Positions 2-9,866 are shown, counted from the stretch's first letter. The stretch is DNA of 32,000 nt from an uncultured bacterium (GCA_963704705.1 OY969931.1:60001-92000), one strand, 5' to 3'. A program made the numbers and translations. Notes: generated by a model not told the origin, from the letters alone.

Positions 2-2965
2 CCTCAGAACTCAAATAATTTATCCAAAATAAAAGAAATAACTTACAACGACCAAAGCCTTCCAAATTACAGCGAGTTAAAGTTGTTTGATTCAAAAAAC
101 GATACGACACCTGTTACATCAAGGTCTTATTTTGATGGAAGAGGAAACGTTATTCAGAACAGATCAACTTCAAATACACCTGGAACTTACATTGTTACTG
201 ACAATTCATATGATGCAAAAGGACAGGTTACAAGAGAATCTCTTCCATATTTTACTTCGGGGACAGCTTATCAAAGCGTTAATTTGGCAAAACCAGCAAA
301 TTTATATACATATGACGTTTTGGGAAGAATCAAGCAAGTGTCAAATGCGCTCGGCACAACATCAACTGATTATAATTTATGGAATTCAACAATTACCGAT
401 CCTTTAAATAATCAAAAAGATTTGATAATGGATGCTTACGGAAGACTTGTTGAGGTACATGAGCACAACGGAGCTGACGAATATATTACTCACTACGAAT
501 ACACTCCACTCGGCCTGCTAAGCAAAATAACTGACCACTATGGTAATTTACGAACATTTACTTATGACGGACTGGGAAGACTTACAATGCAGACAGACTT
601 CCATTTGCCGGCTGATACTTCATACAGCAAATGGTCTTATATTTATGACCAAAATTCAAATTTGCTTACCCAATCTTTCGGCGACGGAAGCAATATAAGA
701 TACTATTATGACCAGCTTAACAGACCACTGAGAGAACATTCTTCAAAAACCGGAAAAGACGAAGTTACATACACTTATGATACAGCACCGTATGGAACAG
801 GTTTACTTGCTTCGATTACAAAAGACGACTGGTCAAATGCTTTTGAATACGACATTAACGGAAATGTAACCAAAGAAACAACTTTAATTAAAGGAGACAG
901 TTATGTAACAAACCGGCTGTTTGATTTACAGGGGAAGATAACAAGACTTATTTCGCCGGACAACAAAATGATCAGATACGCATATAATGATATGGGGCTT
1001 ATTGATAATGTATATTATGGATATTCCATTCTTGCCAATAATTTGGATTATACGCCTTTGGGCCAGATGTCGCATATTGAATTTTCAAACGGTGCAGTAA
1101 CGGATTATGATTATCCGGAGTCTGATTTATTTAGACTAGGTCATATAACAACAACTTTAAATGGCCAGACCATTCAGGATTTGGATTACACATACGATGC
1201 TTTAAACAACCTTACGCATCTTGTTGATAATTCACAGCTGCTTACAACTAAAGTTGCGGATTTTATATATGATGATTTATCAAGACTTACAAGCGCGGTT
1301 GCAACAAAAAATGGGCAGCCGGTTTACAATCAGGCTTATGATTACAATGCCATCGGCAATATTATGAATAAGTCCGATGTCGGCTTATATACTTATGCCG
1401 GAGGGATAGCTTCTTCAGCGCCTTCTGTATATTCAAATCCACACGCTGTGACAGCAGCTGGAGCAGTTAATTATTTATATGACAGGAGAGGTAATGTAAC
1501 CAAAATTAATGATAATTTGACAAGCAAAGAGCTTACATATGATTACAATGATGATCATATAATTTTTAAGAACGGAATTGATGGAGTGAGGTATGGTTAT
1601 GATAATTCAGGCAATAGAGTATGGAAGCAGGAAATTGAATATTTTGCGATTGAGCCTAAAGTTCCTTTGATAACAAATACACTGTTTACGAAAGAAACTA
1701 CTACATGCACTCCGATTTCAGCACCTGTTCGCACAAAAAATACTTTAATAGGTAAAGAATATACTATTCAGTTAAGCTCAAGATATAACTATGACGAAGA
1801 ATGCCGGGCAATAAAAAGTACAGGCACCGAAACTCGCTATGTTGGCGGATTTTATGAAGAAACCCGCGATAAATCAACAACTGTCAAAGGCGGAACAGAC
1901 ATAGTAAAAAGATTAAACATCGACGTCAACGGCATGCAGATCGCCACAATCGAGACAAGGCCAAAAGCTTTTCCGATCGGTTCGGTTGACGTACGCACCT
2001 TCTTCCATCACCGCGACCACCTTGGCAGCGCAAGCATAGATACCTCGGGCGGCAATGTAACAGCCGTTAGCGACTATCTGCCATTCGGAACAACCCTTAA
2101 CGATCAAAACTACGACTCTCTCGGCTACGACAACGCCTATAAATTCACGGGTCAGGAACTCGACGACGAAACCGGCCTGTACTACTACGACGCTCGTTAC
2201 TACGATTCCGACCTGGGAAGGTTTATGGCGGTGGATGGGGCGTATCTGGGAGTGAGCGGGGATAAGGCGATGCTTGTTAATCCGCAGGCCTTAAACAGCT
2301 ACAGTTACGTGCTTAATAATCCGCTAAAGTATGTGGATCCGAGTGGAAATAATTTTGTTGATACATGGAATAGTGGTATGGATATTTTGGAATCTATAGC
2401 TGCAGCAGATGGCCCAGCGCTTTATTTAGATACAGTTGCGGTAGTTTTATCAACAGTAGTTATAGCAGATACTGGAATTGATTATGTTGCAGAAAAGATC
2501 AATGAATCAATAGTACAACCAATATCGAATGCTCATTCTGAAGTTTTATCACAAGCGGAAACAAGTGGAAATGTGGAAAATGGATATGTTACTTTATACA
2601 GAGGTGATGTATCAGGAAAAACTTTTTTTGTATCAAAAGGTTTAGAAAATATCGCAACTTTGGGAGCTGATCTAGTTTTCGGTACAGATTTAAATATGGC
2701 GATTCAAAATCATATAGACTATGTTGATAATAATAAATATTCACCTTTTGTTTCTACAACTTTAAATGAAGCAATTGCGGAAGATTTTGCCAAAGGTCAA
2801 GACGGGAATCAAACTGGCTCAGTTTATACTTTAAAAATACCATCTAATGATATAATGTACCCAGGGAATCCTCAAAATGAAGAAGTATTGATACCAGGAG
2901 TAATAACAAGTGAGAAAATAGTTAATATTAGACCAATATCAGTTAATTTAAATGACAATGATTAA
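2..2965 (+). CDS. RHS/YD-repeat polymorphic toxin, 5'-truncated by the window edge, with a variable C-terminal toxin tip
   Basis: The reading frame is open from nt 2 with no stop before the track's Met at 83, so the gene continues upstream. It has many YD repeats (YDVLGRIKQV, YDGLGRLTMQ, YDQLNRPLRE, YDDLSRLTSA, YDRRGNVTKI). RHS core-end motifs are present: YYDARYYDSDLGRFMAVDG and NNPLKYVDPSGN (DPSGN = nt 2336-2350). About 200 aa of unrelated sequence follow. Confidence 0.9.
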   Translation, partial: PQNSNNLSKIKEITYNDQSLPNYSELKLFDSKNDTTPVTSRSYFDGRGNVIQNRSTSNTPGTYIVTDNSYDAKGQVTRESLPYFTSGTAYQSVNLAKPANLYTYDVLGRIKQVSNALGTTSTDYNLWNSTITDPLNNQKDLIMDAYGRLVEVHEHNGADEYITHYEYTPLGLLSKITDHYGNLRTFTYDGLGRLTMQTDFHLPADTSYSKWSYIYDQNSNLLTQSFGDGSNIRYYYDQLNRPLREHSSKTGKDEVTYTYDTAPYGTGLLASITKDDWSNAFEYDINGNVTKETTLIKGDSYVTNRLFDLQGKITRLISPDNKMIRYAYNDMGLIDNVYYGYSILANNLDYTPLGQMSHIEFSNGAVTDYDYPESDLFRLGHITTTLNGQTIQDLDYTYDALNNLTHLVDNSQLLTTKVADFIYDDLSRLTSAVATKNGQPVYNQAYDYNAIGNIMNKSDVGLYTYAGGIASSAPSVYSNPHAVTAAGAVNYLYDRRGNVTKINDNLTSKELTYDYNDDHIIFKNGIDGVRYGYDNSGNRVWKQEIEYFAIEPKVPLITNTLFTKETTTCTPISAPVRTKNTLIGKEYTIQLSSRYNYDEECRAIKSTGTETRYVGGFYEETRDKSTTVKGGTDIVKRLNIDVNGMQIATIETRPKAFPIGSVDVRTFFHHRDHLGSASIDTSGGNVTAVSDYLPFGTTLNDQNYDSLGYDNAYKFTGQELDDETGLYYYDARYYDSDLGRFMAVDGAYLGVSGDKAMLVNPQALNSYSYVLNNPLKYVDPSGNNFVDTWNSGMDILESIAAADGPALYLDTVAVVLSTVVIADTGIDYVAEKINESIVQPISNAHSEVLSQAETSGNVENGYVTLYRGDVSGKTFFVSKGLENIATLGADLVFGTDLNMAIQNHIDYVDNNKYSPFVSTTLNEAIAEDFAKGQDGNQTGSVYTLKIPSNDIMYPGNPQNEEVLIPGVITSEKIVNIRPISVNLNDND
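1913..2287 (+). repeat. Direct repeat copy 1 (RHS core 3' block inside the full-length gene)
   Basis: Aligns without indels to 3577-3951 at a constant offset of 1664 nt. I count about 12 mismatches by eye over ~375 nt. The near-identical antisense ORFs 1913..2107 and 3577..3771 in the track are by-products of this duplication. Confidence 0.95.
2351..2962 (+). other. C-terminal toxin domain of the RHS protein, ADP-ribosyltransferase-like (R-S-E type pattern)
   Basis: The pattern is TLYRG (Arg codon 2600-2602), then 51 aa on SPFVSTT (S-T-T = 2753-2761), then about 40 aa on PQNEEVLIPG (Q 2873-2875, E-E 2879-2884). Order and spacing match the Arg / STS / [QE]xE triad of C2/C3/VIP2-like ARTs. This is motif recognition only, with no profile search. 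Confidence 0.5.
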
Positions 2966-3512
2966 TATTATTTCCAAAATTACAAATCAATTTGATGTTT
3001 TCAGAATTGATGGCAGAGAAGGCGAAGGGAAGCCTAAAATTCCGGGCAAAATAATAAATGTATTTAAAAATAATATGGGTTTTCAATATTCTTCAATAGA
3101 AGTTTATAAAGATGGCAAAATTTATACAGGAAAAGGAGAATTGACAGACCTTTCTGGCTTAAAAAAACAAATACAAGATGGATGGATAGTCCTAAGATTA
3201 CCCGATAAATGTAAATTAAACATGTATCCATTCGGACAATATGAAATTTCAAGTTCGAATAATTTTATAATGGAAGCAGATTTTATTAAACAAGTTGAAG
3301 ATACAATTAGAATTTTGAATAAAAAACCCACATCTGCTAATATTTGTAGAGATTTATATATTGAATATGTTAATAATCCCTCAGAAGAATTAGAAAATAA
3401 ATTAAAAGTGGCATACTTCAATGTGCCTGAACATAAACGGCAGTTTATTTTAGGCGATATGGACGCAAAAGACGGGCCAATTAAAAAAATTCTTGGACTT
3501 AATAATAGATAA
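2952..3512 (+). CDS. Candidate cognate immunity protein for the ART-like RHS tip (no recognisable family)
   Basis: The 186-aa ORF starts 14 nt before the toxin stop (ATG 2952, toxin TAA 2963-2965). This is the classic translationally coupled toxin-immunity layout. No signal peptide or known domain was recognised. Confidence 0.55.
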   Translation: MTMINIISKITNQFDVFRIDGREGEGKPKIPGKIINVFKNNMGFQYSSIEVYKDGKIYTGKGELTDLSGLKKQIQDGWIVLRLPDKCKLNMYPFGQYEISSSNNFIMEADFIKQVEDTIRILNKKPTSANICRDLYIEYVNNPSEELENKLKVAYFNVPEHKRQFILGDMDAKDGPIKKILGLNNR

Positions 3513-3576
3513 GGCTTAAGTGGTTTTAATAAACCAAATTACCTAGTAAGTTCAAACACTCTCGCTCTTTGTTAAC

Positions 3577-3951
3577 TTAAACATCGCCGTTAACGGCATG
3601 CAGGTTGCCACAATCGAAACAAGGCCAAAAGCTTTTCCGATCGGTTCGGTTGACGTACGCACCTTCTTCCATCACCGCGACCACCTTGGCAGCGCAAGCA
3701 TAGATACCTCGGGCGGCGATGTAACGGCCGTTAGCGACTATCTGCCATTCGGAACAACCCTTAACGATCAAAACTACGACCCTCTGGGCTACGACAACGC
3801 CTATAAATTCACAAGCCAGGAACTCGACGACGAAACCGGCCTGTACTACTACGACGCTCGTTACTACGATTCCGACCTGGGAAGGTTTATGGCGGTGGAT
3901 GGGGCGTATCTGGGAGTGAGCGGGGATAAGGCGATGCTTGTTAATCCGCAG
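3577..3951 (+). repeat. Direct repeat copy 2 (RHS core 3' block heading the orphan cassette)
   Basis: Same alignment as above. Homology starts abruptly at TTAAACATCG (3577), 27 nt after an in-frame TAA (3547-3549), and ends abruptly at AATCCGCAG (3951). Confidence 0.95.
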
Positions 3952-4587
3952 AAATTGAATTCTTATAGTTATGTTTATAATAATCCATTAAAATATACTG
4001 ACCCTTCAGGAAATTGGGGCTTTACAATGACTTGGTCAAATCCTTGGACACTAACTTTGCTAAAAATTCCACTTCCTACTTGGTCTGCACCAACAATGCC
4101 AGTAACTTTGGCGCCTGTATTTGAACCTGTCCCATTAGTTCCGCCTTCAGAACCAGCGAAACCAATACCTTTGGAATCAAGGTTAAATCCGGAATCTACA
4201 ACACCTCCTCCTGGATGGAGCGGAACAAAACCACCGGATGGATGGGATGGATCAAGTCCTCCAGGAGATGGATTTGACAAGAGGGGAGGTGATGACGGCG
4301 GATGGTATAATCCAGATTTACAAGAATCGTGGCGTCCAGATTATACAGAGAACCATAGATTCCATTATGATTATAAAATGAAAAAAGGCGACGGTTACAG
4401 ATATTTCCCAGATTCAGGTACCTGGCAATTAAAAAACGGATGTACAATGGATGTATACAATGATTACATAAATGATATGGAACAATATAATAAAGATATG
4501 CAACAATATCAAAGTGATATGGATAAATATAACCAACAAAAAGAGAAGAATTCAGATAATGAATTTGGTGGTTATATTCAAGGTTAA
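3598..4587 (+). CDS. Orphan rhs-CT cassette: remnant of the RHS core (about 125 aa) fused to a different toxin tip; probably silent until recombined
   Basis: The first ~118 aa are nearly identical to aa ~613-735 of the upstream RHS ORF, including DLGRFMAVDG. The sequence then runs NNPLKYTDPSGN, a Pro-rich linker and a novel ~110-aa C-terminus. The Met at 3598 corresponds to an internal Met of the full-length gene. No Shine-Dalgarno sequence or promoter is evident upstream. Confidence 0.75.
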   Translation: MQVATIETRPKAFPIGSVDVRTFFHHRDHLGSASIDTSGGDVTAVSDYLPFGTTLNDQNYDPLGYDNAYKFTSQELDDETGLYYYDARYYDSDLGRFMAVDGAYLGVSGDKAMLVNPQKLNSYSYVYNNPLKYTDPSGNWGFTMTWSNPWTLTLLKIPLPTWSAPTMPVTLAPVFEPVPLVPPSEPAKPIPLESRLNPESTTPPPGWSGTKPPDGWDGSSPPGDGFDKRGGDDGGWYNPDLQESWRPDYTENHRFHYDYKMKKGDGYRYFPDSGTWQLKNGCTMDVYNDYINDMEQYNKDMQQYQSDMDKYNQQKEKNSDNEFGGYIQG

Positions 4588-4602
4588 TTAACTTTTTTAA
4601 TT

Positions 4603-5250
4603 ATGAAATTTCAAAAAATGCAACTGGATCATAAGGCAATTGAATATATCAAAACAATACTGAAAGAAATGAAAATGGATGTGTTTTTTGATATAAAAAA
4701 TCTCAATGAAGGTTCAGTTTTCACATATTTACCTTTAAATGTTGGAAAAAATTTAGTAAACAAATTTGATCATGGAGGCATTGTTAAAGTGCCCGAAAAG
4801 AAGATTCATGTCGATGGTGGTTATTTTGTTAAAGTTCCTGATAATGCTTTTAAATATTTAGCAGAAGAAATTTATATCTACATCAATAGTGATAAGAATA
4901 ATATTTGCTTTCAAAGATCTGGTTGGTGGAAAAAAGACGATAAATGTGTTAAGGAACAAATAAATAAATTTCCTTTATATTTTTATAATCACTATACATA
5001 TGATTTTTTATTAGAGTCCTATAGTCGTAATAAGATTAGAAATTTTTTAGATATGGATTTTCGACATACATTTGGAGTAATGACAAAAATTAATAAAAAA
5101 ATGAGTTTTTTAACTAAGGACAGGCAAGATATTTCAAAAGAAGATATGCAATTTTTCATAGATCATATTCAGAAGCTTTTTGTGGTTGCCTACGACGGTG
5201 AAGGATTTATTATTTGGGAGAAATCTAAACATATTCCCCCCACTCCATAA
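4603..5250 (+). CDS. Candidate immunity protein for the orphan toxin tip (no recognisable family)
   Basis: The 215-aa ORF starts 15 nt after the orphan toxin stop on the same strand. Its last 26 nt overlap the 3' end of convergent carB. Confidence 0.5.
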   Translation: MKFQKMQLDHKAIEYIKTILKEMKMDVFFDIKNLNEGSVFTYLPLNVGKNLVNKFDHGGIVKVPEKKIHVDGGYFVKVPDNAFKYLAEEIYIYINSDKNNICFQRSGWWKKDDKCVKEQINKFPLYFYNHYTYDFLLESYSRNKIRNFLDMDFRHTFGVMTKINKKMSFLTKDRQDISKEDMQFFIDHIQKLFVVAYDGEGFIIWEKSKHIPPTP

Positions 5251-8200
5251 TCTCCAAATCTTCGAGCTTGTACTTTGCAAATGCTTCTATAAGCATTTTT
5301 GCAACCTGCACATTTGTAAGCAGAGGAATGTTCATGTCGATAGCTGTACGTCTTATAATGTAGCCATCTGTTTGTTCCCGGCGAGTATAGTTTTTTGGGA
5401 TATCTATTACCAAATCGAGTTTTTTCTGCTCGAGATAATCGAGAAGATTTGGGGATTTGCCGGTAGAAACTTTGTGAACAAGCGAGTTTTTAACTCCATT
5501 TTCATTTAAAAATTTGGAAGTTCCTTCTGTAGCAAATAAATTGTAATCAAGATTCTGTAAAATTTTCGCTGATTCCAAAAGTTCAGCTTTATCTTCTATG
5601 CGACCAACAGAAAGCAAAATATTCTTTTTTGGAATTGTGAAACCTACCGAGATCATTGCTTTAAGTAGTGCGGCTTGTAAAGTCTTCCCAAAGCACGCCA
5701 CTTCGCCCGTAGAGGCCATTTCAACTCCAAGTACGGGGTCAGCACCTTTAAGGCGTGAGAAGCTAAACTGAGGGGCTTTAACGCCAACGTAATCAAGGTC
5801 CAGGGTTTTATAGTCGGTGCGGTTTAAATCTTTAGCGTCTCGCATGTTTAACATTGCTTTTGTAGCGATCTCAATAAAGTTGTAACCTGTAACTTTTGAT
5901 GAGAACGGGAAAGAGCGTGAAGCGCGCAGGTTACATTCGATTACTTTTACCTCGTTTGCTTTGGCTAAAAACTGAATGTTAAACGGTCCTGAAATATCGA
6001 GCTCTTTTGCTATTTGTTTGGTTATATTTTTAATACGTCTAATTGTTTCGATGTAGAGTTTTTGAGGAGGCAATACAATTGTAGCGTCACCACTGTGAAC
6101 CCCAGCATGCTCAATGTGTTCTGCGATTGCGTAAATTACCAAACGGCCTTTATATGCAACCGCATCTATTTCAATTTCTTTTGCCCCAATCTCAAACTTG
6201 CTTATAACAACAGGAGCGTCGGGTGAAACGCGGGTTGCTGTTTCTAAGAAATCGATTAAAGATTCCTTATTATGAGCAACCCGCATTGCAGCACCGCTTA
6301 AGACATAAGACGGTCTAACCAACACCGGGTATTTCACCTTCTTTGCAAACCTGATTGCTTCAGGCATGCGATTTAGCTCTTTCCACTGAGGTTGATCAAC
6401 TTTTAGTTTATCAAGCATTTCCGAAAATTTATGGCGGTTTTCCGCTCTGTCGATATTTTTCGGATCAGTGCCGAGCACTTTTACTCCGGCTTCTTTTAAT
6501 TTTGTAGCTATATTATTTGGAATTTGCCCTCCGGCTGAGAGTATCACGCCATCAGGCTTTTCTTTTTCATAAATATCAAGAACCCGTTCAACACTAAGTT
6601 CATCAAAATATAATTTGTCTGATATATCATAATCCGTTGAAACAGTCTCGGGATTGTAATTGATCATGATTGTTTCGTAGCCCTGCTTGCCAACTGTTTG
6701 CAAGGCGGTTACACAGCACCAGTCAAATTCAACACTCGAACCAATTGAGTACGAACCGCTTCCCAGAACAATAACTTTTTTGCGTTTGCTTGGTTTAACA
6801 TCATCTTTGTCACCATGATAAGTCAAATACAGATAATTGGTTTTAGCAGGCCATTCAGCAGCCATTGTATCGATTTGTTTAATCACAGGTTCAATGCCAA
6901 GCTGCTTTCGCAGTTTGCGAATATCATGCTCATTATTTTTTGTTAGATTCGCTATTTGCGCATCTGAAAATCCCTGTTTTTTTGATGTCAATAAAAGTTC
7001 TTTATCTAATTTTCGTTTATTTTTTAGCTTTTCTTCAGTATGAACAATATTCTTCAGCTTTTCCAAAAACCATGGATCAATTCCTGAAAGTTTATTTATC
7101 CTTTTAACTGTCCAGCCTTTTCTTAAAGCTTCAGCAATTGCGATTATTCTTTTTGGAGTTGGGACAGCTATTTCTTTTGCCAGATTTTTGGTTTTAAGCT
7201 CAACATGTTTATTAGCAACAAGTCCATAGAAGCCAACCTGAAGCATTCGTAAACCTTTTTGCATAACCTCTTCAAAGCTTCTTCCAAGAGCCATAATCTC
7301 GCCAACAGACTTCATCTCGCTTGTAATTTCCTGAGAAACTCTTTGAAATTTTTGCAGATCCCATCTCGGAATTTTTAATGCAAGATAATCAAGCGCAGGT
7401 TCAAAACACGCAACCGTGGTTTGGGTAACCGCGTTTTTCAACTCCGGCAGCGTATAGCCAAGAGCAAGTTTTGCTGCGATGTGAGCCAATGGATAGCCAG
7501 TCGCCTTACTTGCCAATGCAGATGATCTCGAAAGTCTGGCATTCACTTCAATCACGCGATAATCTTCGGATTCCGGATCAAGTGCAAACTGAATGTTACA
7601 TTCTCCGATTATTCCAAGGTGCCGAATTGTTTTTATAGATAAATCTCTTAACTTATGATATTCGCTGTTTGTTAAAGTCTGCGATGGAGCAACAACAATA
7701 GATTCGCCTGTATGAATTCCGAGCGGATCAAAATTCTCCATATTACAAACCGTAATACAGTTATCTGCTTTATCGCGAACAACCTCATATTCAACTTCTT
7801 TCCAGCCTTTTAAATTTTCTTCAACTAAAATCTGGGGAGAATATGCAAAAGCTGTTTTTAGCAGAGCTTTTAGTTCCTGTTTGTTATAAGCAAAGCCGCT
7901 GCCTTTTCCGCCAAGAGCAAATGCAGCACGTATTATTAAAGGATAACCAATTTTTTCAGCAGCTTTATACGCCTGATCTTCATTGGTGCAAGCCACACTT
8001 TTTGGCATTTTAACGCCGATTTTTGTAAGTTCTTTATTAAAAAGTTCGCGGTCTTCGGTATTTTGAATTGTTTCAACCGGAGTTCCCAAAACTTTAACAT
8101 TGTGTTTTTTAAGCACTCCGTTTTCAAATAATTCAACCCCGCAGTTCAAGGCTGTTTGTCCGCCAAATGCAAGTAAAATTCCATCAGGATTTTCTTTGGC

Positions 8201-8437
8201 AATCACTTTTTCTACAAAATATGCGTTAACAGGCAAAAAATAAATTTTATCAGCAAGTTCTTTTGAAGTTTGATTTGTAGCAATATTGGGATTAACCAAA
8301 ACCGTTTTAATCTTTTCTTCACGGCATGCTTTTATGGCTTGCGCTCCGGAATAATCAAACTCCCCTGCTTCCCCTATTTTTAGGGCTCCTGATCCAAGGA
8401 CCAAAACTTTTTTTATTTTGTGTGATTTTGTCGGCAT
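5225..8437 (-). CDS. carB: Carbamoyl-phosphate synthase large subunit
   Basis: 1070 aa. The N-terminus is KKVLVLGSGALKIGEAGEFDYSGAQA. Two ATP-grasp halves are present (second: KKVIVLGSGSYSIGSSVEFDWC), followed by a C-terminal MGS-like domain. Length and motifs are canonical. Confidence 0.97.
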   Translation of the reverse strand: MPTKSHKIKKVLVLGSGALKIGEAGEFDYSGAQAIKACREEKIKTVLVNPNIATNQTSKELADKIYFLPVNAYFVEKVIAKENPDGILLAFGGQTALNCGVELFENGVLKKHNVKVLGTPVETIQNTEDRELFNKELTKIGVKMPKSVACTNEDQAYKAAEKIGYPLIIRAAFALGGKGSGFAYNKQELKALLKTAFAYSPQILVEENLKGWKEVEYEVVRDKADNCITVCNMENFDPLGIHTGESIVVAPSQTLTNSEYHKLRDLSIKTIRHLGIIGECNIQFALDPESEDYRVIEVNARLSRSSALASKATGYPLAHIAAKLALGYTLPELKNAVTQTTVACFEPALDYLALKIPRWDLQKFQRVSQEITSEMKSVGEIMALGRSFEEVMQKGLRMLQVGFYGLVANKHVELKTKNLAKEIAVPTPKRIIAIAEALRKGWTVKRINKLSGIDPWFLEKLKNIVHTEEKLKNKRKLDKELLLTSKKQGFSDAQIANLTKNNEHDIRKLRKQLGIEPVIKQIDTMAAEWPAKTNYLYLTYHGDKDDVKPSKRKKVIVLGSGSYSIGSSVEFDWCCVTALQTVGKQGYETIMINYNPETVSTDYDISDKLYFDELSVERVLDIYEKEKPDGVILSAGGQIPNNIATKLKEAGVKVLGTDPKNIDRAENRHKFSEMLDKLKVDQPQWKELNRMPEAIRFAKKVKYPVLVRPSYVLSGAAMRVAHNKESLIDFLETATRVSPDAPVVISKFEIGAKEIEIDAVAYKGRLVIYAIAEHIEHAGVHSGDATIVLPPQKLYIETIRRIKNITKQIAKELDISGPFNIQFLAKANEVKVIECNLRASRSFPFSSKVTGYNFIEIATKAMLNMRDAKDLNRTDYKTLDLDYVGVKAPQFSFSRLKGADPVLGVEMASTGEVACFGKTLQAALLKAMISVGFTIPKKNILLSVGRIEDKAELLESAKILQNLDYNLFATEGTSKFLNENGVKNSLVHKVSTGKSPNLLDYLEQKKLDLVIDIPKNYTRREQTDGYIIRRTAIDMNIPLLTNVQVAKMLIEAFAKYKLEDLEIMEWGEYV

Positions 8438-8441
8438 TTAT

Positions 8442-9866
8442 TTAAAAAATTAAAATAAGCAGCAAAGGAATAATAGCAAATCCTGCGATATATTTTAGAA
8501 TATTCCCTCGCCTCATTTTAATAACATGGGTTGATAAATATTTTGTAGTTTTGTATATAAGTGTGCATCCATAATTTCCAAAAATAAAAATTACCCCAAC
8601 AGCTGCAATCATCGAAAGTACAACACCTCCCGCAATTGCATAAGGCTGAGAATTTGCGAATGAAGCGAATAAAACATCAATAAAAGTTGCAACCGAGGTC
8701 CCTATCAAATAAGGAATTGCCTGTTTTAATTTTACTATTTGGGCAACCGCAAGCGGAACCATAATCGTTGTTAATAATGATGCACTTGGAATTATTATTG
8801 TAAGTCCAAGCCCGATTCCAAATGCTTTCCAGTGATTTCCCAAGAATTTTTCCATAATCGCACGGGCGTGTTTTCGGCCTCCCAAAAACACAAATACACT
8901 TTTTCCAACCCTTCCCAAACTAAAGATCAAAAGCCCTATACCAACAAGTATTCCAAGAGGGATCGGCCATAAATCAAACCGCACTAAACTAAGTAAAGGT
9001 GCCGTGATCACTGATAATAGATCAGGAATTTCTCTGAATGCCGGAAAATTCGTAGCCCATCTCGCAATAACCTCTCCTGAATTCGTAAAAAATCCGGTTG
9101 GAATTTCAATTAATAAAACTATTATCGTTAAAAATATTGAATAAACAATATTGGCAAGTCCCAGCTCAAAACCCCTTCTTAACTGCCAGTGGTCTTTTGT
9201 TTTTATTACCAATGAAGCAAGCACAGGGGTTAATGGGTTTCCAAGTGAAATTCCAAGAAGTATATAAAATCCTATATCAAATGACATAATTTTTGCGCCC
9301 ACCAAAGAATTTGCGAGAATAGCTATTACAGAGCCGGATTGAACTATGACGGTTGTTAGCCAGCCAGCACCAAACGCACTAACATCATTATTAACCGTAT
9401 ATGTAATTGCTTCAATAGTGCCCGAGCTTAAAGCCAATGCAACTTCTTTTATTATAATTACCGATAAAATAAACAAATATAGAACCCCTACCAATTCCAA
9501 AAAATTGATAATTTTTCTTCTTGTTGAATAAACCCGTGCTTTTACTGAAATTAATTCATTTCTTGCTTTCGCAATTTCCGCAGCGGTTGCTTTTTCAACA
9601 TTTTTATTGGCTTTTTCCGCTTCTTTGTTGATTTTTACCTGTTTATTTGTAAATATTTTCCATACTTTTTTGGCTTCTTTTTCAATCTCTTTAAGTGCCT
9701 CATCTTTTTTTTCTTCTACTTCTTTAAGCTTATTAACTTTTTTATTTTCGATTTTGTTTTTTGTTTTTTCCAATACAGACTTGGCTCTAGCAGTAACCTT
9801 TGCCAATTCTTCTTTCTTTTCAGCAAGCTCTTCTACTAATTCTTTTTTAGTTTTTTTATTATTCAT
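8442..9866 (-). CDS. Na/Pi-cotransporter-family-like membrane protein with a ~120-aa Lys/Glu-rich N-terminal extension
   Basis: Two internal repeats resemble the Na_Pi_cotrans signature: GAGWLTTVIVQSGSVIAILANSLVGA...LLGISLGNPLTP and GLGLTIIIPSASLLTTIMVPL...LIGTSVATFI. The protein is polytopic. Its stop lies 5 nt upstream of the carB start. Confidence 0.6.
   Translation of the reverse strand: MNNKKTKKELVEELAEKKEELAKVTARAKSVLEKTKNKIENKKVNKLKEVEEKKDEALKEIEKEAKKVWKIFTNKQVKINKEAEKANKNVEKATAAEIAKARNELISVKARVYSTRRKIINFLELVGVLYLFILSVIIIKEVALALSSGTIEAITYTVNNDVSAFGAGWLTTVIVQSGSVIAILANSLVGAKIMSFDIGFYILLGISLGNPLTPVLASLVIKTKDHWQLRRGFELGLANIVYSIFLTIIVLLIEIPTGFFTNSGEVIARWATNFPAFREIPDLLSVITAPLLSLVRFDLWPIPLGILVGIGLLIFSLGRVGKSVFVFLGGRKHARAIMEKFLGNHWKAFGIGLGLTIIIPSASLLTTIMVPLAVAQIVKLKQAIPYLIGTSVATFIDVLFASFANSQPYAIAGGVVLSMIAAVGVIFIFGNYGCTLIYKTTKYLSTHVIKMRRGNILKYIAGFAIIPLLLILIF

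Follow-up and report, generated by a model that had tools for sequence, protein, structure and literature searches.

The rhs locus and its orphan module

We analysed a 32,000-nt window of DNA from an uncultured bacterium (GCA_963704705.1 OY969931.1:60001-92000; G000:C1:60001-92000 in our numbering), which opens with the 3′ end of an rhs gene of full length and, downstream of it in the same orientation, an orphan rhs C-terminal (CT)/immunity module. The orphan consists of a truncated RHS core joined to a different toxin-like tip and followed by its own small gene, and it begins with a 375-nt direct repeat of the core of the full-length gene. Coordinates are positions in the window unless another sequence is named, and the features are as follows, with the basis of each assignment in brackets.

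1–2965, + strand: main rhs gene, 3′ 987 codons (open reading frame (ORF) call, domain matches)
1913–2287, + strand: repeat copy 1, in the main-gene core (repeat search, base comparison, GC content at third codon positions (GC3))
2288–2350, + strand: final 21 codons of the main-gene core, ALNSYSYVLNNPLKYVDPSGN (codon comparison with the orphan)
2351–2965, + strand: tip 1, weakly ADP-ribosyltransferase-like (Pfam and PDB sequence matches)
2952–3512, + strand: putative immunity gene 1, 186 aa, DUF7638 and DUF7639, overlapping the rhs gene end (ORF, Pfam)
3513–3576, + strand: spacer, holding the in-frame stop at 3547–3549 (stop scan, terminator prediction)
3577–3951, + strand: repeat copy 2, the 5′-truncated core fragment of the orphan (repeat search, base comparison)
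3598–4587, + strand: orphan ORF, 329 aa (ORF call, TIGR03696, start context)
3952–4014, + strand: core end borne by the cassette, KLNSYSYVYNNPLKYTDPSGN, which moves with the tip in contig L023 of an unrelated Logan assembly (codon and contig comparison)
4015–4587, + strand: tip 2, with a Pro-rich linker, an Ntox37-like all-beta domain (about 4234–4437) and a long helical tail rich in N, Q and D (homology, model)
4603–5250, + strand: putative immunity gene 2, 215 aa, the last 8 codons being carB antisense (homologs, start context)
5225–8437, − strand: carB, right flank of the rhs island (ORF call, gene order in relatives)

The source genome is one closed contig of 1.37 Mb with 35.5% GC. It lacks ribosomal protein uL30, which is present in 13 of 14 control genomes, and all sampled genomes of its order (n = 205) measure 0.7–1.9 Mb. 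We infer that the host is a bacterium of the Candidate Phyla Radiation (CPR)/Patescibacteria type, Peregrinibacteria-like, an assignment that fits the presence of carB here, given that nucleotide-synthesis genes have been reported for Peregrinibacteria (PMC4736985).

The main gene (G000:C1:56492-62965) starts 3,509 nt ahead of the window, and its product of 2157 aa is arranged in the order Sec-type signal peptide (MNYFKKYSAALLCCTVLFSIVLPGTVFA), SpvB (PF03534, E = 5e-19), FG-GAP (E = 5e-17), TcdB_midN (PF12256, E = 8e-18), RHS repeats (PF05593, E = 2e-21), a core ending in DPSGN and a 204-aa tip. From this domain order, the main protein is predicted to be a fused shell protein of the TcB/TcC type; PF03538, the model for a TcA-like partner, had no match in the genome, but the control genomes gave no match either. 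Tip 1 resembles a Scabin-like domain in Pfam (E = 0.0015, below the curated cut-off), and its best PDB sequence match is the toxin TreX (E = 0.018).

A base-by-base comparison confirmed the repeat exactly as the original prediction had described it from inspection of the sequence. Positions 1913–2287 recur 1664 nt further on, at 3577–3951, in the same orientation and without indels; 12 mismatches leave the copies 96.8% identical, and neither a third copy nor a second RHS gene was found in the genome. Past the repeat, weaker similarity continues for 63 nt to 2350/4014 (62% nucleotide identity, 18/21 residues) and ends at DPSGN, beyond which the main and orphan proteins are unrelated. Both copies match the Rhs-associated core model TIGR03696 (E = 8e-21 and 1e-19). 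The second copy, situated 611 nt past the main-gene stop, thus proved to be what had been claimed, a core end with a different tip followed by a small ORF of 215 aa (4603–5250, starting 13 nt past the orphan stop), with neither an N-terminal body nor RHS repeats. Its frame is open over 3550–4587 (345 codons), behind an in-frame stop (3547–3549) that does lie 27 nt ahead of the start of homology. The deletion that had been proposed between the repeats, 1664 bp that would fuse the RHS body to the orphan tip, also works out arithmetically: the first possible orphan start, the ATG at 3598, maps to 1934 (3598 − 1664), in frame with the ORF that starts at position 2.

Expression signals

Long ORFs in this genome carry upstream Shine-Dalgarno motifs less often than random positions do (4% versus 8%), and the host does not use them; true starts are instead preceded by A/T-rich, G-poor sequence. 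The absence of an obvious ribosome-binding site at the orphan, noted in the original prediction, is therefore uninformative. We scored the 20 nt upstream of start codons position by position and ranked each score among true starts. There the orphan ATG reaches only the 7th percentile, immunity gene 2 the 79th and immunity gene 1 the 42nd; set against internal ATGs, the orphan ATG stands at the 34th percentile, and its context thus resembles theirs.

These scores bear on whether the orphan might be translated from ATG 3598 and form, together with its partner, a toxin-antitoxin-like pair that works within the cell, as has been reported for an orphan Rhs of Salmonella (PMC7043789). An in-frame ATG is available, a missing ribosome-binding site is no bar to initiation in a genome of this kind, and short stand-alone proteins that join a core end to Ntox37 exist, such as the 180-aa P0005 in contig L024. 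However, the ATG at 3598 is a conserved internal Met codon of the main gene with a poor start context, and homology to the main gene begins 21 nt upstream of it, which leaves no dedicated leader. On balance we regard independent translation as quite improbable.

No terminator-like site was predicted between immunity gene 1 and the orphan. Promoter-like sites number 23 in the region against 15.7 expected, an excess that is uninformative in AT-rich DNA. The best sigma-70-like match (ATTACA, 17-nt spacer, TATAAT) lies at 4463–4491, inside the orphan frame and 112 nt upstream of immunity gene 2, and is a consensus match only. Judged from these features of the DNA, the spare toxin is likely silent and its antidote likely expressed.

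Tip 2 is divergent and Ntox37-like

Neither tip 2 nor immunity gene 2 has a Pfam or NCBIfam match, and a search of 1.84 billion representative proteins returned just 12 relatives of tip 2 at E ≤ 0.001. Several of these are Pfam Ntox37 proteins, some of them on RHS bodies, and the links from tip 2 to members of this family (PF15535) have phmmer/BLASTP E values of 3e-6 to 8e-4, and 6e-6. The PF15535 model is matched by 7 of the 13 aligned domains, and tip 2 retains the Ntox37 positions E105, R and H118-x-D120. We predict that tip 2 is a divergent toxin domain of the Ntox37 family. An AlphaFold model of it (mean predicted local distance difference test score, 68) places a small beta domain before a long helix. 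A profile search of solved structures with the tip domain yielded antibody VH matches alone, which we rejected as spurious.

In the 2012 catalogue of Zhang et al., Ntox37 is entered with RHS repeats; its fold is given as all-beta and its conserved residues as E, [KR] and Hx[DH] (PMC3482391). The present locus resembles the cassettes of that study in arraying a toxin-immunity cassette downstream of a complete toxin gene, and all of the conserved Ntox37 residues occur in tip 2. It differs from them in that tip 2 is too divergent for a direct match to the Pfam model and that the immunity partner belongs to no Pfam family, with Imm32 not detected; CPR lineages, moreover, were unsampled in 2012 (PMC3482391).

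The 215-aa partner of tip 2 has two homologs. The first, 55% identical, stands behind a 77%-identical tip on L023, and the second (25% identical, E = 8e-8) adjoins a small Ntox37 protein in L024. Because the two proteins thus co-occur in three contexts, they probably form a toxin-immunity pair. Measured against L023, the tip has a ratio of non-synonymous to synonymous substitution rates (dN/dS) of 0.14 and the immunity gene one of 0.22, without frameshift or stop, and therefore neither gene shows a sign of decay. The small Ntox37 protein of L024 (255-797) is P0005 itself, a stand-alone protein with about 20 RHS core-end residues, a transmembrane helix and the Ntox37 domain; with the immunity-protein homolog that follows it, it makes up a self-contained short form of the cassette.

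Recombination footprints within the core

The two cores do not diverge at the motif that ends them. Across the 125 repeated codons (1913–2287), 10 codons differ and third positions agree at 117/124, whereas in the next 21 codons (2288–2350) 18/21 residues are still the same but third positions agree at just 8/21. This break in synonymous divergence, at 2287/2288 and inside the conserved core, is highly significant (Fisher p = 9e-9) and therefore indicates two anciently diverged core ends, each preceded by 375 nt of recent common ancestry. Contig L023 shows the same limit independently: it matches the orphan from exactly 3952 on (91% nucleotide identity over 3980–4032, 77% amino acid identity in the tip and 55% in the immunity protein) and differs upstream of 3952. 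The moving unit is therefore the last 21 core codons, the tip and the immunity gene.

The repeated block is also foreign to the gene that contains it. Its GC3 is 0.65, compared with 0.27 ± 0.05 in the rest of the gene, where no other 375-nt window exceeds 0.35, and the step within the main gene falls at 1913, the left limit of the repeat. Since the RHS bodies and cores of relatives have GC3 values of 0.45–0.79, the block looks imported from such a gene, or raised in GC3 by biased gene conversion between the copies. We rejected GC-biased conversion as the sole cause, the RHS bodies and cores of relatives being generally rich in GC3 and the body of the present gene not, so that import is at least as likely. 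No donor was found for the repeated block, the best relative (G008) reaching 74% amino acid identity. Four courses of events were weighed: displacement, a tandem duplication whose tip was then replaced, a 1664-bp circle that integrated, and gene conversion. Each would account for just some of the coincident boundaries.

G008 also carries the closest RHS ortholog of the main gene (56% amino acid identity; G008:C128:5827-11700, L017/L029), which adjoins pilin-like genes away from the trxB/carB site. It has one in-frame TAA mid-gene on a contig that ends just past the core, and may be a pseudogene or an assembly error.

An acquired island between trxB and carB

In five relatives (four of the same genus, one of the same family), trxB and carB converge so closely that their stop codons abut or overlap, and none of the five genomes has an RHS match. 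Here the two genes are separated by 8.83 kb that hold the rhs gene and the orphan, each followed by its immunity gene, and from this comparison the whole rhs locus is evidently an insertion between trxB and carB. The left junction lies at G000:C1:56393/56394, 3.6 kb upstream of the window start, and the right one at 5224/5225, which is also where the homology of immunity gene 2 to L023 ends; the native stop of that gene has been lost and 8 extra codons come from carB antisense. No mobility gene was found within the island.

The position of immunity gene 2 raises the question of whether the orphan is a fossil, the former 3′ end of the rhs gene, displaced by the arrival of the ADP-ribosyltransferase-like tip and never redeployed, with immunity gene 2 either still useful or simply not yet lost. 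An edge location with a lost native stop is what an older resident end would show, and the poor, internal-looking context of the orphan ATG beside the good one of immunity gene 2 points the same way. So do the two derived substitutions at conserved core positions of the orphan copy, and an in-frame TAG in the orphan of one related genome (G029). Set against these are a frame that has stayed open for 345 codons, the retention of conserved family residues in tip 2, its dN/dS of 0.14 against the nearest homolog and a 375-nt stretch of 96.8% identity, which is ample for RecA-dependent recombination. We consider a fossil origin possible, though on the unlikely side.

A spare tip probably available for redeployment

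The reading that we favour, and hold to be probable, is that this CPR bacterium, which has one full-length rhs gene, keeps an orphan rhs-CT/immunity module immediately after it in a form that can be redeployed. The main gene would encode a Sec-exported shell of the TcB/TcC-fusion type, in which any tip placed after DPSGN is enclosed and from which it is released. The orphan would supply an alternative: 125 core codons nearly identical to those of the main gene, then its own 21 core codons, an Ntox37-family domain and a cognate immunity gene. Its toxin would remain mostly silent and immunity gene 2 would be expressed, probably by read-through of the rhs operon, guarding the cell against Ntox37-type toxins of its neighbours. 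A RecA-dependent crossover within the 375-nt repeat would then remove the intervening 1664 bp, and the shell would carry the Ntox37 tip instead. The host genome contains recA, and switching by repeat recombination could take place in this bacterium.

Several points weigh against this proposal. Tip 2 gave no match to the Ntox37 model PF15535 at E values up to 10, and its modelled fold matched no solved structure in the PDB (Foldseek, nothing below E = 0.6). The immunity function of both partner genes is putative, assigned from position and co-occurrence. The two derived changes in the orphan core fragment (N to D and G to S, both at conserved positions) could reflect relaxed constraint. Scans of genome and metagenome contigs with the orphan protein, which might have revealed close strain variants, gave distant RHS cores only (33–41% identity). 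Finally, a recombinant would lose immunity gene 1 and so become sensitive to its siblings, and in Salmonella a prior duplication of the locus was needed.

The nearest known counterpart is STM0291/STM0292 of Salmonella enterica Typhimurium LT2, where a full-length rhs gene likewise precedes, on the same strand, a core fragment that lacks the body, ends in another tip and has a separate immunity gene (PMC3967940, PMC3150448). The direct repeats compare closely in length and identity (522 bp at 95% there, 375 bp at 96.8% here), and in both cases a crossover would join the orphan's tip to the main body, with loss of the main tip and its immunity gene. In LT2 this recombination, and the deployment of the orphan toxin, has been shown experimentally (PMC3967940), whereas here switching is predicted from sequence. 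The two loci differ further in their hosts, the present one being a 1.37-Mb CPR-type bacterium without type VI secretion; its protein bears a Sec signal and resembles TcB in the N-terminal half. The homology here also stops 21 codons short of the DPxG motif, and in composition the shared block is foreign to the body of the gene. A second parallel is with the BC (TcB-TcC) cocoon proteins of Tc toxins and their fusions, since a single chain of the main protein unites SpvB, FG-GAP, TcdB_midN, RHS-repeat and Rhs-core domains and the core is followed by a variable tip; as a difference, the linked immunity genes here suggest that the targets are other bacteria.

The original prediction had suggested that this form may not have been described outside Proteobacteria and Firmicutes, which overstates the case. 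Toxin cassettes with immunity genes occur across all major bacterial lineages (PMC3482391), and an RHS toxin adjoining an immunity gene was noted in a CPR (Saccharibacteria) genome in 2018 (PMC6031116). For orphan cassettes in CPR bacteria, we found no describing paper in the literature. The locus is an ordinary and sound case of a known design, in a little-studied lineage and with unusually clean recombination footprints. That design is textbook for Enterobacteria, and the gain is taxonomic and ecological, not conceptual; the sharp footprints show cleanly, in a natural case, at which point within the core a cassette exchange cuts.

A life attached to other cells is assumed for CPR/Patescibacteria, and how they compete and how they treat their hosts is little known. 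On the reading given here, a genome of 1.37 Mb would devote 8.8 kb to an acquired RHS toxin, a spare warhead and two antidotes.

Main-plus-orphan pairs in relatives

The design is frequent in the host's order. An RHS core match (E ≤ 1e-15) is present in 41 of the 204 other genomes, and main-plus-orphan pairs occur in at least 8 of them, from six families (G117, G044, G043, G047, G202, G022, G029 and G023). The repeats of these pairs are 67–489 nt long, 80–96% identical and spaced 1.1–2.2 kb apart. In 4 of the 8, as in the present locus, the point where homology stops falls between the GRFxxxD and PQxLNxY motifs.

These pairs also bear on whether the assembly could have created the tandem layout artificially, by placing two strain variants of one locus, with one tip each, in a row. 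Repeats of this kind do break assemblies, and contigs of relatives end exactly at the repeat. However, the orphan is 5′-truncated and joined to a unique spacer after immunity gene 1 (junction 3576/3577), and assemblers do not invent such junctions. The two copies differ at 12 sites, each with its own flanks, the genome is a single closed contig, and both copies lie within single contigs of G044 (a contig of 1.3 Mb), G047, G117 and G043. An artefact is therefore extremely improbable.

A bolder reading is that the 375-nt block is the working exchange handle of a cassette system common to Peregrinibacteria-type CPR bacteria. It is suggested by the foreign composition of the block (GC3 0.65 versus 0.27), by limits that match those of the homology in either copy and by a breakpoint that recurs in relatives, and we advance it tentatively, as an unlikely option. 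The handle could operate through repeated gene conversion, or through circle-type excision and integration of 1.1–2.2-kb units made up of core handle, tip and immunity gene. If this were true, ultra-small episymbionts would possess a switchable and horizontally refreshed arsenal.

Two of the related loci have further features of their own. In G047 (C1; L054), four families of direct repeats about 8.2 kb apart (277-688 and 8505-8907; 72–92% identity) flank the rhs locus and may represent the N-terminal regions of two paralogous large genes. In G022 (C39; L015), a new RHS-repeat frame appears at the contig end (3824-4084) after two tip/immunity units, which may form an array between two rhs genes; the second of these tips carries an HAHH motif, typical of HNH/AHH-type nucleases.

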